64,000 bases of DNA from Bdellovibrio sp. (GTDB taxonomy: Bacteria > Bdellovibrionota > Bdellovibrionia > Bdellovibrionales > Bdellovibrionaceae): assembly GCA_036676395.1 (NCBI GenBank), contig JAKFCY010000002.1, positions 2,176,001-2,240,000 on the forward strand, written 5' to 3'. Shown piece after piece: positions 18,413-25,267 of the stretch (its first letter is position 1; the number at the start of each line of letters is the position of its first letter). Made by a program: the position numbers and the translations under genes. The notes beneath the pieces were generated by a model. It was not told the origin of the DNA. It ran no database searches and worked only from the letters and a program-made list of their open reading frames with translations.

Positions 18413-18706
18413 GTGTTTCGGATATATAAGGCTGAAGTAAGGTTTAACAAGAAATACTGGAGTTATATTTGGATAGATTCTCATTACGAAAAAAAACATA
18501 GCCACTCTATCAATGATGATCTAATCCTGACCTTACTTAGCTGCTTAACAGGCGATAGTGCCGTTGAAGCCAATACTGAATCAGGTGGCTTTGCATATTA
18601 TGAAGTCGATACAGAGTACAAAGGCAAACTTTACCGACTTATTTTAGTCATTCCACCAGACAACAGCTATCTTGGCGTCAGAAATACTTATAGGAGGTCA
18701 AAATGA
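18413..18706 (+). CDS. Putative type II toxin (BrnT/RelE-like size and pattern)
   Basis: 97 aa; YKGKLYRLILV...GVRNTYR; ATGA overlap with the HTH gene. Confidence 0.5.
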   Translation: MFRIYKAEVRFNKKYWSYIWIDSHYEKKHSHSINDDLILTLLSCLTGDSAVEANTESGGFAYYEVDTEYKGKLYRLILVIPPDNSYLGVRNTYRRSK

Positions 18707-19056
18707 AGAAAATAAAAAAACCAAAGTTAATTCGAGTTAGCAAAACACCTCCACCAGGCTGGCCTACCGAAACCCATTGGAAAGAAATTGAAAAAAAGCT
18801 TGGCAAAGGATTAGCTACAAAGATGCTTTCTCCTGACGCTGGCCCCGTAGAGCGCACTAAGCACGAGCTTTGCGAACTGTTTATCCTTTACCGTCGTGAA
18901 ACAGACATCACCCAACGTGAGCTGGCAACACGCTTAAATGTGACTGAAAACAGAGTCAGCGAAATTCTACACTACCATTTTGATACCTTTACACTGGATA
19001 GGCTTATCGAATTGCTAAGTCGAATAAAGCCAAATCTAAAAATAAAAGTAGCGTGA
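18703..19056 (+). CDS. XRE-family HTH antitoxin-like protein
   Basis: ITQRELATRLNVTENRVSEILH...FTLDRLI. Confidence 0.8.
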   Translation: MKKIKKPKLIRVSKTPPPGWPTETHWKEIEKKLGKGLATKMLSPDAGPVERTKHELCELFILYRRETDITQRELATRLNVTENRVSEILHYHFDTFTLDRLIELLSRIKPNLKIKVA

Positions 19057-19756: not shown

Positions 19757-20743
19757 ATGTATAAAAAAATTATCATCAATCTAGCAATGGCAATGGTTAC
19801 GCCACTAGCGTTCGCTAACACTTCATATGACGGTGTGTCGCTGGCTGCCGCTGCAGATTCAAGTTTTTATATAGAGACTCCGGTGGCCGCAAAGCTAACT
19901 TTATTTAATCAAGATGTGACCGGCAATATGTCAGTCAGCAAACAAATCACAGTTCCAGAGAATTCAATCTTAGCGGTGAATTTATCAACGTTTGCAACGC
20001 GCGTGAATAGCGACTGGGTGTGCGGAATTCGTGTAGTCGACGTTCAAGATGAAGATCTTCGTGAATCAGATGTCGCTGACGAAACTGATTTTTGTATTCG
20101 TACTGCAGATGTTAAAAAAGCTGGATTATTAGATAGTTCAAATGGTTTAAATAAAGAAGCCTTTCTTAAATATCAAAAAACGGGTCAGCTTTCTGAATTA
20201 CATGATCTTGGTGCTTTTGCTGCACATATGGCGTCTTCAGAAAACAATTACCAAGTCTTTAAATCAGCTGCGACTAAAAGTAGTAATATGATTAGCCCGC
20301 TTAAAAACTGTAGTGTTGGCTGTTTAGCAGTAACAAGTGAATACGGCATGCGTAAACATCCGGTTCACAAAACTAAACGTTTGCATAAAGGCATAGATTT
20401 ACGCGCAAGAACCGGAACCCAAGTCGTGAGTGTTTATGATGGCAAAGTTTTAGCGACTCGTACTGAGCGTAATGCAAGAACTAAAAAAATGAAGGGCTAC
20501 GGTCATTACGTGATCGTGATCCACCCAACACGTCAGATTGAAACTTTATATGCGCATTTATCTGCATTTAAAACTTCAGCCGGTAAACCAGTAACTCAAG
20601 GTCAAACGATTGCTTTATCTGGTAACACGGGTGTAGGCACTGCCCCGCATTTACATTTTGAAATTCATGTGAAGAAAAATCGCAGCTACGTTCCTGTGAA
20701 TCCAAGATCGTATGTTACTAAAATGTTAAACGTGAATCTTTAA
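19757..20743 (+). CDS. Secreted M23 peptidase
   Basis: Signal peptide; HKGID, YAHLS, GPH-like APHLHFEI. Confidence 0.9.
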   Translation: MYKKIIINLAMAMVTPLAFANTSYDGVSLAAAADSSFYIETPVAAKLTLFNQDVTGNMSVSKQITVPENSILAVNLSTFATRVNSDWVCGIRVVDVQDEDLRESDVADETDFCIRTADVKKAGLLDSSNGLNKEAFLKYQKTGQLSELHDLGAFAAHMASSENNYQVFKSAATKSSNMISPLKNCSVGCLAVTSEYGMRKHPVHKTKRLHKGIDLRARTGTQVVSVYDGKVLATRTERNARTKKMKGYGHYVIVIHPTRQIETLYAHLSAFKTSAGKPVTQGQTIALSGNTGVGTAPHLHFEIHVKKNRSYVPVNPRSYVTKMLNVNL

Positions 20744-21533
20744 TTGAACGGGCTGACACTTCTCTTTGTAGCGAAGCCCATGCATTGATGCACTGATATC
20801 CCCAACAAGTGACTAAAGACTCACGAAAGAATAAGTAATTTTTTGGGGTGCACGAATAACCAGTTTCGAACTCTTGAAATTCGTTAATGCATAAAAAATA
20901 ATTCAGTTCATCTTGCGCACGTTTATAGTTAGTCCATTCTTTATGATCTGCATCGCTTGTTAAAAGTAACATGGCTATTTGATCTTCGAAAATAAATGCG
21001 GCACTTTCAGAACCTAATTCATCAGTAGGATGATCTAACTCGTACAACGCATGCCCAAGCTCATGAGCAAAACAAATAAGATTGCCATATGTTGGCTTAT
21101 TATTGCCCCGAATAACGTACCCAGTACTTCGTGGAAGCGTATAAAATTCGGGACTAGACAAATCCAGCATGGCATTTTCAATCAGAATATTTATTTCAAT
21201 TAGGCGTGGATGGTCTTTTAACAATTCTTTTAAACTAGATTTAAGGTCATTTGTTAGATGTTGTGAAAAAAATAAAGGCGGCTTAAGTGTTGGGGGAAGC
21301 AAACCTAAATTAGCAGAATCCATTAAATTTACTAACTGCGATTTTAACTCTGTTAGCATAGGAAACACCCAGCCTTTTTTAATAAGACTTAACCTTAGAA
21401 TTTCACGGCTTACGAGAACCTCTTTTTCGATGGGTGTTAGTTCGTTTTTTAACCAACGTCTTGGTTCAAATTGCATCTTTTGATACATTTCTTGAATTGA
21501 AACTGAAGTCGCGTAAATCACACAAAACTCCAT
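20718..21533 (-). CDS. HExxH metallopeptidase-like protein (M3/oligoendopeptidase-like core)
   Basis: FAHELGHALYE...SESAAFIFE; overlaps the oxygenase gene. Confidence 0.55.
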   Translation of the reverse strand: MEFCVIYATSVSIQEMYQKMQFEPRRWLKNELTPIEKEVLVSREILRLSLIKKGWVFPMLTELKSQLVNLMDSANLGLLPPTLKPPLFFSQHLTNDLKSSLKELLKDHPRLIEINILIENAMLDLSSPEFYTLPRSTGYVIRGNNKPTYGNLICFAHELGHALYELDHPTDELGSESAAFIFEDQIAMLLLTSDADHKEWTNYKRAQDELNYFLCINEFQEFETGYSCTPKNYLFFRESLVTCWGYQCINAWASLQREVSARSIKDSRLTF

Positions 21534-22060
21534 TCAGATATTAGAGTCAGACGTTCAACTTCTTTAACAACGGGCGAGACGCTGTGAAAAGATTTTTCAG
21601 AAAAAGGCAATACCACAAGTGTATTTGGTTTGGGCTGAATCGTGTTTTCTAAAATAAAGTGTTTGTTATTTTTACTCCAAATTTGAAGGTTTCCACCCAT
21701 TCCAGATCTCCATTCGGTCAAATGTAAAAACACACCTGCATTAAAACCGCAATCTGCGTCAGTATGGATAGGCACACCATTTGTTATTCCTTGGGTACAT
21801 CGCAACTGCGGAACAGAACCTTGATGCCTTTGCACTCTGTTTTTCAATAAATCCTGTAAAACTTGGCGCATATCTTTACCGATCATTTTACGCAGGACTT
21901 CGGTATTACTAACTAATCCATAACGATCGTGATGTTTGGGGTTAGTTTCCCACTGAACAGAGCTTAGGGCTGCTTTTTTAATAAAATGGTAACTCTCTTC
22001 GGAAAAAAAGTTCTCGATAATAAAATAAGGATACGGATTACTGTAGGCTAAGACTTTCAT
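21518..22060 (-). CDS. 2OG-Fe(II) oxygenase
   Basis: HTD...W..GMGGNLQIW...PKPNTLVV...SFHSVSPV...RLT facial-triad pattern. Confidence 0.85.
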   Translation of the reverse strand: MKVLAYSNPYPYFIIENFFSEESYHFIKKAALSSVQWETNPKHHDRYGLVSNTEVLRKMIGKDMRQVLQDLLKNRVQRHQGSVPQLRCTQGITNGVPIHTDADCGFNAGVFLHLTEWRSGMGGNLQIWSKNNKHFILENTIQPKPNTLVVLPFSEKSFHSVSPVVKEVERLTLISEWSFV

Positions 22061-22844
22061 GATCCCCACCCGCTGCTTTCATAATTTTTAGTACTTCTAA
22101 ATTACCGGCATGATTCTTTATCGCCGGAACATAAAGTGTTGTCGAAAAGTTGATTTGAGACTTCAATTGATCGACTTGATCTACGGTATAATAATTTACA
22201 CTCGATTTATCACTTGCTGAGTTAGCGGCTCTAACTAAAGCTATCGGATGATCAGCAGAATAAAACTTTAGCAAATATACTTTAAGCAGATCTAACCGAT
22301 TACCATCGCCTGCGCCTTGATAATCGGCTACTGGATTTGCAACTGAACACACATGATAAAAGAAATGGTCACTCTGTATATTGATCTTATGCTCGAACAG
22401 CAGCGCTCGGTTAATATCAATTAAGCTTGATCCGTTTTCTAGAATATCTAATTCTAATACATTTGCCATAACATCAAAACTAGAAATGCCTTCGAATACC
22501 TGAACTAGCGTTTGCTTTTGACGGCCCCACGTTTCTAAAGCTTTTGTCAAAAACACGCCTAAACGCGGATGACCAGCAACGATGAAACTTACCTGTTCAA
22601 ACTGAGCAACAGTTTTAATGATTGTCTTCATCATGTCTTTATAATTTTCAAGATCGGTGCGGTCAGTTTTGTAATAGGGGTTTAAATTCACCATTACCTG
22701 ATTGCCAGGAACATACTGTTTAATGATCGCTTCCGATGTTTCAATAAAGCAAATAGCTTTACTAGCCTGAATTTGAGCCAGAGCTTCTAAGGTAATTTGT
22801 GTAAATCTTTTAGTACCGATGCCTAGGATATTTAACTTTTTCAT
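22038..22844 (-). CDS. Borosin/OphMA-like SAM-dependent methyltransferase (tetrapyrrole methylase fold)
   Basis: LGIG..QITLEALAQI, NLNPYY..(10)..Y..M, AGHP, GISSFD, LDILENG; start ATG 22844 with GAAGG upstream. Confidence 0.75.
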   Translation of the reverse strand: MKKLNILGIGTKRFTQITLEALAQIQASKAICFIETSEAIIKQYVPGNQVMVNLNPYYKTDRTDLENYKDMMKTIIKTVAQFEQVSFIVAGHPRLGVFLTKALETWGRQKQTLVQVFEGISSFDVMANVLELDILENGSSLIDINRALLFEHKINIQSDHFFYHVCSVANPVADYQGAGDGNRLDLLKVYLLKFYSADHPIALVRAANSASDKSSVNYYTVDQVDQLKSQINFSTTLYVPAIKNHAGNLEVLKIMKAAGGDHESLSLQ

Positions 22845-23083
22845 GATTTGCCTTCTGGTTATAACGAACCGTTTGTCTTCAAGGCTTATTTCAAAGGTGA
22901 TACCAATCCGCATCTATATATAAGTAGGCTATATTTCAGTTCACCTATTTGAATTCCGGGTTTTAAGAAAGTATTCCGAAAATCCGGATAAATTTCGAGC
23001 CAGATCGATTTTATCAAGGCTAGAAATCCGGACAAAGAGGCATAGTACTTGGAATAGTGTTTATCAACTAACAAGGAGTACAC

Positions 23084-23242
23084 ATGAACCATAACCAAAA
23101 CACAGAAACTGAAATCACTGTAAACCAAGCCGCATTAGAGCTTAGAATTGAAACTGAAGGCCCTAGCGTTGTTCGACGTTTACTTAATGTGATTCCAGTC
23201 GACATCGAAGCACTTCTTAAAGAATTAGACGAAGAAGTGTAG
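23084..23242 (+). CDS. 52-aa candidate RiPP precursor peptide (not in the ORF track)
   Basis: AAGGAG RBS at 23073; MNHNQNTETEITVNQAALELRIETEGPSVVRRLLNVIPVDIEALLKELDEEV*. Confidence 0.75.
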   Translation: MNHNQNTETEITVNQAALELRIETEGPSVVRRLLNVIPVDIEALLKELDEEV

Positions 23243-23245
23243 TTT

Positions 23246-23277
23246 TAAAATGGGGATCTGAAAAGATCCCCATTTTA
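23246..23277 (+). terminator. Perfect 14-bp stem with GAAA loop after the peptide gene
   Basis: taaaatggggatct-gaaa-agatccccatttta. Confidence 0.8.
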
Positions 23278-23313
23278 TTGATTTTGGATTCAACGAATAA
23301 TACGGAGAAAAAA

Positions 23314-24606
23314 ATGAAATTTTTTATTAACTCAAAACAGTTTTTACACCTAAGCCTAATTACTTTAATTCAGCAGATGATGGTTGCAGGATCGACTTAC
23401 TTTTTAATTAAACTTACCTCTTCGCAAAACAATCCCGAGAATTTTTTAATTCAGCTATTTGGTTTCTTAGCATGCTTAACGCTGGTCTACTTACCGGTCT
23501 CTCTACAAAAATATTTTCAAGATAAATGGGTTCTTTCAGTTCAGAAAAAATATTTATCTTTATTTAGAAAAAATTACTATGGCCGCATTGATTTACTTGG
23601 AAACGCAAATACTGAAAACGAAAAATTTGGCTTTATGCAAAGAGAAGCTTTTCATGTTATTGATCAAGTCACGTTTTATTGGAGCGATTTACTAACGACT
23701 TCATTAAATGTTGTTCTGAATATTTTAGTTATTGGTGCAGTGCTGGATAAGTCTTTTTTTAGTGCTTACTTTGCCAGTTTTGTAGTTTATGGAATTCTTG
23801 CGACAGTATTTGCTAAATTTATTGAAAAATGGAGCATTGAAAATCAAACGGCTCGTGTTACTCATTCAAGCCTGTTGAATAAAATTTGGCCAACGCTATT
23901 AATTGGCAACCGTATCAATAACGACCAATTATTTAGCTCAGAAGAATCTAAATTTGCTGATTTGAATTCTTCATTGTTAAACAATCGCCGTAAAACTGAA
24001 GCTGTTCAACTTATAACAACCTTACTAACCATGGCTCCAGTCATTGGCTTACTCGTTTATACTATGATTCAAAATTTGCAAAATGCAATGATCTTAGTAC
24101 CCTTGATAGCCACTTTACATCGTCAGGTTCAAATCATTCAACACATCGAAGTTATTGGAACACTTGGCTTACATTATCATTCGATGACGGCTCTGTTAAA
24201 TGGGTTTTTAGCAAGCCTTGAAGCTCCTGAAAAACAACAGCTTAGTCAGCGCATGCAACCCGCACTAATTCGTGTTCAAGAAAATAACGGTCGCACGTTA
24301 GTGACAGGCCCAAATGGTGCCGGAAAATCCACGTGGTTAAAGATCAAAAAAGAAGAACTAGGCGACAAAGCGATTTATATTCCGGCAAAAATGGATATTT
24401 TCTTTAAAGATATTTCTGACGAAATGTCGAGTGGCCAACGTGCTATGGCTATTCTAAAAAATATTGAAACTTCAGATTGCAAAGACCAAGTTTTTTTATT
24501 GGATGAGTGGGATGCCAATTTAGATGCTAACAATCGTGAAGCTTTAGAATTAGTTGTGCAAAAGCTCGCTGAAAACAACAGTGTCTTCGAAGTTCGCCAT
24601 GCCTGA
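23314..24606 (+). CDS. ABC exporter (TM domain plus compact ATPase)
   Basis: Multiple TM segments; GPNGAGKS, MSSGQ, LLDEWD; GGAG RBS before ATG 23314. Confidence 0.8.
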   Translation: MKFFINSKQFLHLSLITLIQQMMVAGSTYFLIKLTSSQNNPENFLIQLFGFLACLTLVYLPVSLQKYFQDKWVLSVQKKYLSLFRKNYYGRIDLLGNANTENEKFGFMQREAFHVIDQVTFYWSDLLTTSLNVVLNILVIGAVLDKSFFSAYFASFVVYGILATVFAKFIEKWSIENQTARVTHSSLLNKIWPTLLIGNRINNDQLFSSEESKFADLNSSLLNNRRKTEAVQLITTLLTMAPVIGLLVYTMIQNLQNAMILVPLIATLHRQVQIIQHIEVIGTLGLHYHSMTALLNGFLASLEAPEKQQLSQRMQPALIRVQENNGRTLVTGPNGAGKSTWLKIKKEELGDKAIYIPAKMDIFFKDISDEMSSGQRAMAILKNIETSDCKDQVFLLDEWDANLDANNREALELVVQKLAENNSVFEVRHA

Positions 24607-25267
24607 AGTATCTATAGAATTTCTACTCGCATTGGGTATAAATGGGTATCAACAAATTACTCCAAAAGCTGAATGCAAACTACGCTTGCAGCAATCAATG
24701 GATCTGATTTATGAGCTGCCGACTGAACTAGTCTGTCTGCAATCACTTTTCACAGATGAACTTAAAGAAGTTATTTGGCTGCAAGCGATAAGTAAAGACA
24801 CTCCGACATTTGCTTCAGCGGCCTATCCAGAAGTACCTGGTAAAGTTTTTGTGACAACAGCATTATTTTATTATGTTCCGCCAACAACAGCTACGCTAAT
24901 TACTAATACATATTTTGCTTTTGAAAATATGATTCATGAATGCCTTCACCATCGTGGTGAAAAAATATTTACCGCATCGCCGCTACTAAGAGACTTAATG
25001 AAAAGCAGTGCTGAAATTAGTGTGTCTTGGCGGGCAACAACTTGGAGTTTTTCTCACGCCATTCAAGCTTACTATGTGTATCTTTGGATATTTAAACTTC
25101 GCCAATGGCGCTCGAACGATGTAAGCGAAAAAATTGAAATTCGCAAAATTCTGTCACAGTCATTGAATGATGTAAGTGTTATTATTAATGAACTTGAAAT
25201 CCAACTAAGCCAGATTTCGAAGGTCTCCCCTATTGAATTTCGTGCTTTACTAGAGAATCAATTTTAG
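24599..25267 (+). CDS. aKG-HExxH-type (HEXXH motif) peptide-modifying protein
   Basis: FASAA..PGKVFV...ENMIHECLHH...VSWR...HAIQAYYVY; ATGCCTGA overlap with the ABC gene. Confidence 0.7.
   Translation: MPEVSIEFLLALGINGYQQITPKAECKLRLQQSMDLIYELPTELVCLQSLFTDELKEVIWLQAISKDTPTFASAAYPEVPGKVFVTTALFYYVPPTTATLITNTYFAFENMIHECLHHRGEKIFTASPLLRDLMKSSAEISVSWRATTWSFSHAIQAYYVYLWIFKLRQWRSNDVSEKIEIRKILSQSLNDVSVIINELEIQLSQISKVSPIEFRALLENQF

Follow-up and report, generated by a model that had tools for sequence, protein, structure and literature searches.

A conserved 52-residue peptide gene divergent from a borosin-like methyltransferase in a Bdellovibrio genome reads as a RiPP precursor

We analysed a 64,000-nucleotide stretch of a Bdellovibrio sp. 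genome (assembly GCA_036676395.1, contig JAKFCY010000002.1, positions 2,176,001 to 2,240,000), called the window below, for a small open reading frame (ORF) that an earlier note had put forward as the precursor of a peptide made on the ribosome and modified after translation (RiPP). The ORF spans 23084-23242 on the plus strand, from an ATG at 23084 to a TAG stop ending at 23242, encodes the 52 residues MNHNQNTETEITVNQAALELRIETEGPSVVRRLLNVIPVDIEALLKELDEEV, and is present in a plain ORF list with a minimum of 40 amino acids. As the note had described, the motif AAGGAG lies at 23073-23078, 5 bases 5' of the ATG, and the translation has an acidic N-terminus followed by the aliphatic and basic stretch PSVVRRLLNVIPVDI and the tail EALLKELDEEV. 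Three overlapping genes run divergently from the peptide gene on the minus strand, encoding a methyltransferase, a 2-oxoglutarate (2OG)-Fe(II) oxygenase and a HExxH protein (HEX1), and on the plus strand the peptide gene is followed by a hairpin, an ATP-binding cassette (ABC)-like gene and a second HExxH gene (HEX2). We read the ORF, with a probability of about 0.72, as the precursor of a six-gene RiPP cluster on an accessory island of Bdellovibrio-type genomes, with a predicted binding to the methyltransferase and a presumed chemistry. The features on which this reading turns are as follows.

23073 to 23078, plus strand: ribosome-binding site AAGGAG, kept as AAGGAG or AAAGGAG in 4 of 4 orthologous loci.
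23084 to 23158, plus strand: variable, acidic, leader-like N-terminal part of the putative precursor, residues 1-25; sequence and length vary, and it lies outside the predicted interface.
23159 to 23242, plus strand: invariant part of the putative precursor, G26-V52 and stop, with the motif R32-x-L34-x3-P38-x2-I41 and an amphipathic helix (I41/L44/L45/L48), from alignments, codon comparison and complex prediction.
23246 to 23290, plus strand: intrinsic-terminator-like hairpin of 14 bp with a GAAA loop (23246-23277) and a U-rich tail, a probable attenuator, from folding and from structure kept in related loci.
22038 to 22844, minus strand: stand-alone, borosin-like S-adenosylmethionine (SAM) methyltransferase of the TP-methylase fold, 268 aa, from PF00590, solved-structure matches and clade invariants.

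The ORF recurs in identical synteny in three other Bdellovibrio-type genomes. A peptide homologue search found matches at E ≤1e-13 in 3 of 61 related genomes, and the methyltransferase is carried by 3 of the 52 genomes of the genus, the identical three that hold the peptide. The peptide is also encoded in Bdellovibrio sp. HCB337, and its gene always has the divergent methyltransferase on one side and the ABC-like gene on the other. Matches with an identical V30-D49 segment were also found in nine further database proteins. In a 12-row alignment (A2) none of the rows departs from this segment, and the N-terminal ~25 residues differ in both sequence and length, a variability of the N-terminal part that is seen again across the 26 rows of a wider alignment (A4). 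Over the last 27 codons, each pair among four genomes differs in 11-16 codons and shows only 0-2 amino-acid changes. These comparisons at the codon level show the ORF to be a conserved coding sequence under strong purifying selection. Seven weak peptide matches in other genomes (E 0.07-0.75) fall inside long ORFs of 68-1016 aa and were taken as chance. Rfam gave only two matches, both over the hairpin and far below threshold: one of 23.3 bits where the gathering score is 228.9, the other of 18.3 bits where it is 80.4.

The methyltransferase (residue numbers follow protein P0011, 268 aa, with its ATG at 22844) matches PF00590 with 36.1 bits against a cut-off of 27.8. In a search of solved structures at E ≤0.01, all 25 of 25 chains were borosin backbone N-methyltransferases (OphMA at 4.4e-16, dbOphMA, MroMA, and SonM at 5e-4), so that this TP-methylase-fold enzyme is specifically related to OphMA and SonM. 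Exhaustive profile search recovered 149 clade representatives at E ≤1e-30 and 939 at E ≤1e-10. The clade invariants are Y58, D64, N67, Y68 and GHPR94. In an alignment of 172 sequences, 137 have D at position 64, 18 have R and 11 have a gap there; nearly all keep Y58 and Y68, and 100 show R94 of GHPR. A partial Legionella feeleii methylase (P0035) falls within this Asp64 clade. A canonical Legionella plasmid enzyme used for comparison scores 1e-37 against dbOphM and 4e-35 against SonM.

A single-protein contig search gave 3 close loci only, and more distant methyltransferase loci (labelled L below, with proteins labelled P) were reached by an alignment-based metagenome scan and a phylum search, which together gathered 33 metagenome loci and 11 of 401 genomes of the phylum. 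Family peptides were sought at these loci by a peptide profile and by a motif search for small ORFs ≤600 nt upstream of the enzyme. The family motif is R-x-[LMQ]-x3-P-x2-[ILV], after which hydrophobic residues recur in an i, i+3, i+4, i+7 spacing as an amphipathic helix, and a peptide carrying it lies near 34 of 40 distinct methyltransferase sequences (33 from the motif search, plus L039), usually on the same strand and just 5' of the enzyme. All 26 of the 26 aligned family members have R32 and P38. Among the six loci that yielded no motif peptide, four have truncated enzyme ORFs (L019, L048, L049, L050), L020 offers only 161 nt of upstream sequence, and L046/L047, the most distant relative, truly lacks one. 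As a background, the pattern occurs in 74 of 3631 small ORFs of the gathered loci, and about 50 of these 74 are the upstream peptides themselves. The comparison thus shows that the peptide family is almost always encoded beside members of one divergent, borosin-like methyltransferase clade, a small conserved ORF genetically linked to a modifying enzyme across taxa (34 of 40, with co-occurrence in 3 genomes). This bears out the proposal in the earlier note of a precursor-type peptide tied to the methyltransferase.

The same unit is also found repeated. Nine loci (L021, L024, L031, L036, L037, L041, L042, L044, L045) have 2-3 tandem units within one ORF, and L038 has two peptide genes; tandem copies of the whole unit are a hallmark of multi-core precursors. 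A family profile search found 41 protein clusters at E ≤0.01, almost all of them unnamed, and no Pfam or NCBIfam model covers the 26 family peptides at a convincing level. On a Serratia liquefaciens plasmid the gene set comprises a hypothetical protein (the peptide), a SAM-dependent methyltransferase, a HEX2-like hypothetical protein, a 2OG-Fe(II) oxygenase and a major facilitator superfamily (MFS) transporter. One such locus (L062, plasmid p2-125, NZ_CP033895.1 107848-116669) has a three-unit precursor; its neighbours on this conjugative plasmid are a recombinase and a Tn3-family transposase, and the family is therefore horizontally mobile.

Two further kinds of variant were seen. The precursors of L023, L027, L033 and L039 are ~100 aa long, with a basic, Pro/Arg-rich N-terminal half and a degenerate second motif copy before the PRCMTALPEN unit. 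Longer proteins carry the clade methyltransferase domain once or twice (P0145, 684 aa; P0176, 540 aa; P0193, 768 aa; P0069, 593 aa); P0176 and P0193 each have two matched stretches, and P0069 is filed in one 90% cluster with a 43-aa family peptide. These may be fused or duplicated forms.

The earlier note had also stated that no borosin-binding domain is recognisable, and none is detectable in the peptide profile or in the enzyme: SonA is absent from the solved chains matched by the peptide profile, even at E ≤10, and the enzyme that accompanies the 52-aa peptide is a bare 268-aa catalytic domain. We predicted the complex with two enzyme copies and one peptide, each given as an alignment, together with three controls. 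The predictions score 0.63, 0.63 and 0.59, against 0.00 for the best of the controls, with a partner pLDDT (predicted local distance difference test) of at least 53, and the runs share at least 75% of their contacts. In calibration the mark is reached by 116 of 157 solved complexes and by 2 of 215 mismatched pairs, counts that hold only roughly for our own alignments and the 2+1 stoichiometry. The predicted interface takes up the invariant half of the peptide, with residues 27-39, 41-42, 44-45 and 47-48 in contact. Of the predicted pairs, the tightest join I41, L44, L45 and L48 to residues 65-73 and 101-106 of the enzyme, and L33-V36 to its G96-L99, Y68 and N145. The invariant C-terminal half is therefore predicted to bind the methyltransferase directly, without a borosin-binding domain, and the model supports a short C-terminal helix as the docking element, with the cleft occupied by the R32-P38 stretch. 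From these models and alignments, G26-V52 reads as a putative core and recognition helix. The Val/Ile/Leu/Asn/Asp/Pro-rich segment that had been proposed as the core holds up in the same way, since the Val/Ile/Leu/Asn/Pro segment and the acidic helix are the invariant part and the predicted enzyme contact.

The suggestion that recognition may differ from that in known split borosins is not wholly new, as split borosin clusters without this domain are already in print, as 'Class 4' in the Figure 1 legend of PMC11395268 and, for the Legionellales, with custom motif models in a section of bioRxiv 10.1101/2024.01.09.574750. Legionellales enzymes are likewise described as diverging from other borosin enzymes in a passage of bioRxiv 10.1101/2021.12.24.474128.

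Directly after the peptide gene, three bases 3' of the TAG, lies the perfect 14-bp stem with a GAAA loop (23246-23277) that had been noted ahead of the ABC gene, followed by a T-rich tail. Its minimum free energy (MFE) is -22.5 kcal/mol against a shuffle mean of -10.2 (z = -4.5), and none of the 200 shuffled sequences folds as stably. A strong stem-loop with a U-tract directly follows the peptide stop in 4 of 4 close loci, with unrelated stem sequences. At 20 of the 25 distant loci in which the peptide lies 5' of the enzyme on the same strand, an intergenic stem-loop has an MFE of -14.7 kcal/mol or lower, and the other five have short intergenic regions with folds of -8.6 kcal/mol or weaker. 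With hairpins at 4 of 4 close and 20 of 25 distant loci, the layout of precursor, hairpin and next gene is a family-wide trait. The ABC-like gene starts at 23314, 37 bases past the hairpin, with a GGAG site of its own; no promoter-like site was seen in these 37 bases, so read-through probably drives its transcription. The earlier note had proposed that the hairpin lets precursor mRNA exceed enzyme mRNA. The family-wide occurrence of the hairpin favours this, but in the window the genes for the methyltransferase, the 2OG oxygenase and HEX1 lie divergently on the minus strand, so that here the hairpin could throttle read-through only into the ABC-like gene and HEX2.

The remaining features of the cluster are listed here.

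20718 to 21533, minus strand: HEX1, zincin-like HExxH protein, 271 aa, a candidate precursor-trimming peptidase, from its HELGH motif and a fold match.
21518 to 22069, minus strand: 2OG-Fe(II) oxygenase, 183 aa, from PF13661 (35.5 bits) and PF13640 (34.8 bits; cut-off 27 each).
23039 to 23053, plus strand: GGCAT-N5-TTGGA, a possible sigma-54-type -24/-12 promoter of the peptide gene, from a pattern match kept in 4 of 4 orthologous loci.
23314 to 24606, plus strand: ABC-like exporter, 430 aa, with a hydrophobic N-terminal part, from the translation, which contains Walker A (GPNGAGKST), signature (SSGQ) and Walker B (LLDEWD) motifs.
24554 to 25267, plus strand: HEX2, alpha-ketoglutarate (aKG)-HExxH-type oxygenase-like, start uncertain (TTG at 24554 or ATG at 24599), from a structure model and Foldseek.

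HEX2 gave a model of mean pLDDT 82.8 that Foldseek aligns with the HExxH domain of ChlBH (8s5f; E 5.3e-6, prob 1.00, TMq 0.67). It thus has the HExxH-bearing, zincin-like fold of ChlBH, with a TIGR04267 (IPR026337) score of 18.3 bits, below the cut-off of 40, and its ENxxHExLHH is invariant in 8 rows. Enzymes of the aKG-HExxH type hydroxylate Asp, His or Gln in RiPPs, as stated in part of PMC12636437. All 7 aligned rows of HEX1 keep HELGH and, downstream of it, SE...E, and its role as a leader peptidase is something we infer from motif and model. Neither HEX1 nor HEX2 has a solved relative in sequence search, and a relation of the two as paralogues is not supported (BLASTP E 0.26). In both the window and HCB337 (L014), HEX2 comes after the ABC-like gene; with this query it was not detected in two congeneric genomes (L012, L013). 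The 2OG oxygenase aligns nearly full-length with the model of the RiPP oxygenase YhhC (NF041706), at a sub-threshold 33.4 bits against a cut-off of 150. The nucleotide-binding part of the ABC-like protein covers only ~130 residues (Walker A, signature, Walker B and a terminal His) and falls below every curated ABC cut-off. Homologues of this protein lie 3' of the methyltransferase in many related loci of the clade.

The G+C content is 0.34-0.38 across the cluster against 0.39-0.43 in its flanks, and related loci have no homologues of the flanking M23 peptidase and 419-aa protein. Together with its distribution in 3 of 52 genomes of the genus, the lack of these flanks elsewhere makes the cluster look like an accessory island. 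Upstream of it, at 18413-19056 on the plus strand, are two small overlapping ORFs of 97 and 117 aa, arranged like a toxin-antitoxin or phage-type pair.

The GGCAT-N5-TTGGA pattern has 2 matches in the window where 0.19 would be expected by chance. GGCAY-N5-TTGGA is found 30-60 nt 5' of the peptide ATG in 4 of 4 orthologous loci (the window, L002, L003, L014), with TGGCAC-N5-TTGGA as the HCB337 version. It resembles what we take to be the sigma-54 consensus, except that the -12 element reads GG instead of GC, and its assignment as a sigma-54-type promoter, made on the letters alone, is uncertain. The divergent intergenic region also has a near-palindrome, TCCGAAAATCCGGA, at 22975-22988 and a second CCGGACA at 23019-23030. 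HCB337 carries GTCCGAAATCTCGGAC at the place aligned with the near-palindrome, CGGACA is kept in 4 of 4 loci, and these repeats may form an operator site.

Reading the ORF as a RiPP precursor, we propose the following course of events. The amphipathic helix (I41, L44, L45, L48) would dock on a pair of helices of the enzyme (roughly residues 65-76 and 101-109), placing the R32-P38 stretch in the active-site cleft beside Y68, G96-L99 and N145, and the enzyme would then move methyl groups from SAM onto backbone amides in or near R32-V36. Side chains would be hydroxylated by the two oxygenases, one of the 2OG and one of the aKG-HExxH type, with the conserved Asn35, or the Asp/Asn two residues past Pro38, as candidate sites. 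HEX1 would trim the variable N-terminal leader and the ABC-like protein would export the product. The terminator hairpin would let the peptide mRNA outnumber that of the exporter and oxygenase, and the methyltransferase operon would use its own divergent promoter. The precursor reading is well supported genetically; expression, backbone N-methylation and hydroxylation are presumed.

Several observations weigh against this scheme. Most of them concern the active site, which we compared by an ungapped alignment with OphMA and a multiple alignment with the canonical Legionella plasmid enzyme, SonM numbering being mapped through motif spacing and the Legionella enzyme and not through a direct SonM alignment. 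Asp64 stands in place of the Arg of the R-x3-Y motif (the equivalent of SonM R67), Ala90 in place of the Tyr of YGHP (SonM Y93), and SSFDVMAN where relatives have DCLFAD. Of the residues equivalent to SonM Y58, R67, Y71 and Y93, only Y71 (Y68 here) is in register; the SonM Y58 position is N55, although the tyrosine three residues on, Y58, is invariant. The published antiSMASH borosin rule has YGHP and DCLFAD as its two motif models (Figure 4 legend of bioRxiv 10.1101/2021.12.24.474128); across the clade these positions read [A/P]GHPR and SSFDVMAN. In SonM, R67A is essentially inactive and R67K ~100-fold down, according to a portion of PMC8429565. With so divergent an active site (Asp64, Ala90, SFDVMAN), backbone N-methylation is not assured. 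The methylase half of YabN (NF052436) is as similar to the enzyme as OphMA is (E 4.9e-18, far below its own cut-off). Solved borosin complexes exist, so the complex score may partly reflect likeness to them. The putative core is invariant and the putative leader variable, the reverse of many RiPPs, and this would also fit a pure docking role. The HEX1 model (mean pLDDT 76) resembles metallopeptidases of the M3/M32/ACE2 type weakly, with a best match of E 1.2e-3 (3sks) and none below 0.001, and the 25 distant-locus hairpins were classified by eye, without a shuffle control.

These points bear most directly on the possibility that the ORF is a genuine RiPP precursor bound by the enzyme and the Asp64 clade carries out another methylation, of a side chain such as that of the invariant Arg32 or of Asn35, or, after cleavage, of the N-terminus, so that the product is no borosin. 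We consider this unlikely but deserving of real weight. Three of the four residues studied in SonM (in the part of PMC8429565 used here) are unmatched in register (N55, D64, A90), Y68 alone being kept; the clade is large and consistent, with D at position 64 in 137 of 172 sequences; and its member here scores 4e-16 and 5e-4 against solved borosin enzymes for which the canonical Legionella plasmid enzyme reaches 1e-37 and 4e-35. Yet the sole solved relatives at E ≤0.01 are backbone N-methyltransferases, almost every member of the clade has Y58 and Y68, in the predicted pose an extended, hydrophobic part of the peptide passes Y68 and the GHP loop in the manner of borosin complexes, and either the new invariant Arg94 of GHPR or the substrate Arg32 could stand in for the lost arginine.

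The conservation pattern itself could instead reflect a small regulatory or adaptor subunit, an inhibitor or a stand-in for the docking domain, whose true substrate is encoded elsewhere. A perfectly conserved C-terminal half beside an N-terminus free to vary and a tight binding in the model would suit such a protein, and other precursors in the wider genome were sought through one peptide-homologue search only. We nevertheless hold it to be very improbable, since the 2-3 tandem units in nine loci and the two peptide genes in one are typical of multi-core precursors and pointless for an adaptor, the terminator right after the gene fits a high precursor stoichiometry, and the cluster contains tailoring oxygenases and an exporter, with no other small conserved ORF seen between its genes. 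That the ORF is a chance frame, and the hairpin ends an untranslated transcript or nothing in particular, is contradicted by the conservation data: 27 codons compared across four genomes show a synonymous-only pattern of substitution, the orthologous loci keep the ribosome-binding site, the family motif recurs beside 34 of 40 related enzymes, and no Rfam family comes near threshold in the search over the hairpin. We give it next to no weight.

Among characterised systems, the precursor reading brings the locus closest to the type IV split borosins SonM and SonA of Shewanella oneidensis (PDB 7LTC, 7LTE), with which it shares a separate small precursor gene adjoining a stand-alone TP-methylase-fold enzyme of ~265 aa; solved borosin enzymes are also its sole structural relatives by sequence, and the prediction places the peptide in the cleft of the enzyme. 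The two differ in that SonM/SonA has a five-helix borosin-binding domain, of which there is none in the 52-aa peptide or the enzyme here, and an N-terminal docking domain in place of the short helix predicted here C-terminal to the putative core. The enzyme departs from SonM in having Asp for R67, Ala for Y93 and a shifted Y58 register, at a similarity of just E 5e-4. The best solved matches are instead fused borosins (OphMA at 4.4e-16, dbOphMA, MroMA), the top one being the chain of a Y98A variant (5n0s) that reads AGHP as the clade does; in those proteins a clasp or docking domain and the core are fused C-terminally, whereas here a bare enzyme has a separate core gene.

The locus also resembles the 'Class 4' split borosins, for which the consulted part of PMC11395268 gives a methyltransferase and a core peptide that are separate, in a cluster without a borosin-binding domain, and the Legionellales group, in which conserved short motifs replace that domain as far as the relevant portion of bioRxiv 10.1101/2024.01.09.574750 describes it. 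The L. feeleii methylase P0035 sits in the Asp64 clade, but the one Legionella plasmid enzyme inspected has the canonical R, YGHP and DCLFAD and no motif peptide. Our peptide family may or may not correspond to the published Legionellales group, with which it was compared through that description. HEX2 shares with the aKG-HExxH RiPP oxygenases ChlBH, BpmH and PflC/PosC the fold, the HExxH motif and a place in a RiPP-type cluster, and differs from them in falling below the TIGR04267 cut-off. As three of five defining borosin features are absent, we describe the system as working like a split borosin and do not count it as a member. A literature search found no paper joining borosins with Bdellovibrio, and none joining borosins with HExxH, that is, such an oxygenase paired with a borosin-type methyltransferase.

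The most interesting point in these alignments is the Arg-to-Asp change in the enzyme alongside an invariant Arg in every putative substrate unit. In the Asp64 clade the catalytic arginine may have shifted from the enzyme to the substrate, with the invariant Arg32 pairing with Asp64, and the ~20-residue unit (R-x-L-x3-P and helix) would then be a self-sufficient, repeatable methylation tag without a docking domain; with two oxygenases at hand, the predatory bacterium would make a hydroxylated, N-methylated peptide of undescribed kind. We offer this as a speculation that is quite unlikely to hold in full.

Backbone N-methylation gives peptides protease resistance and membrane permeability, and borosin enzymes are, to our knowledge, the only ribosomal route to it. 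We know of no studied borosin enzyme that does without a bulky docking domain and a conserved arginine. Clusters of this kind may be under-counted, since neither motif of the antiSMASH rule matches the clade. Its presence on Serratia plasmids and its patchy distribution in 3 of 52 genomes of the genus mark the cluster as mobile. The clade described here appears to recognise a ~20-residue motif directly, and, if active, it would provide a much smaller recognition tag and a test of the role of the arginine.

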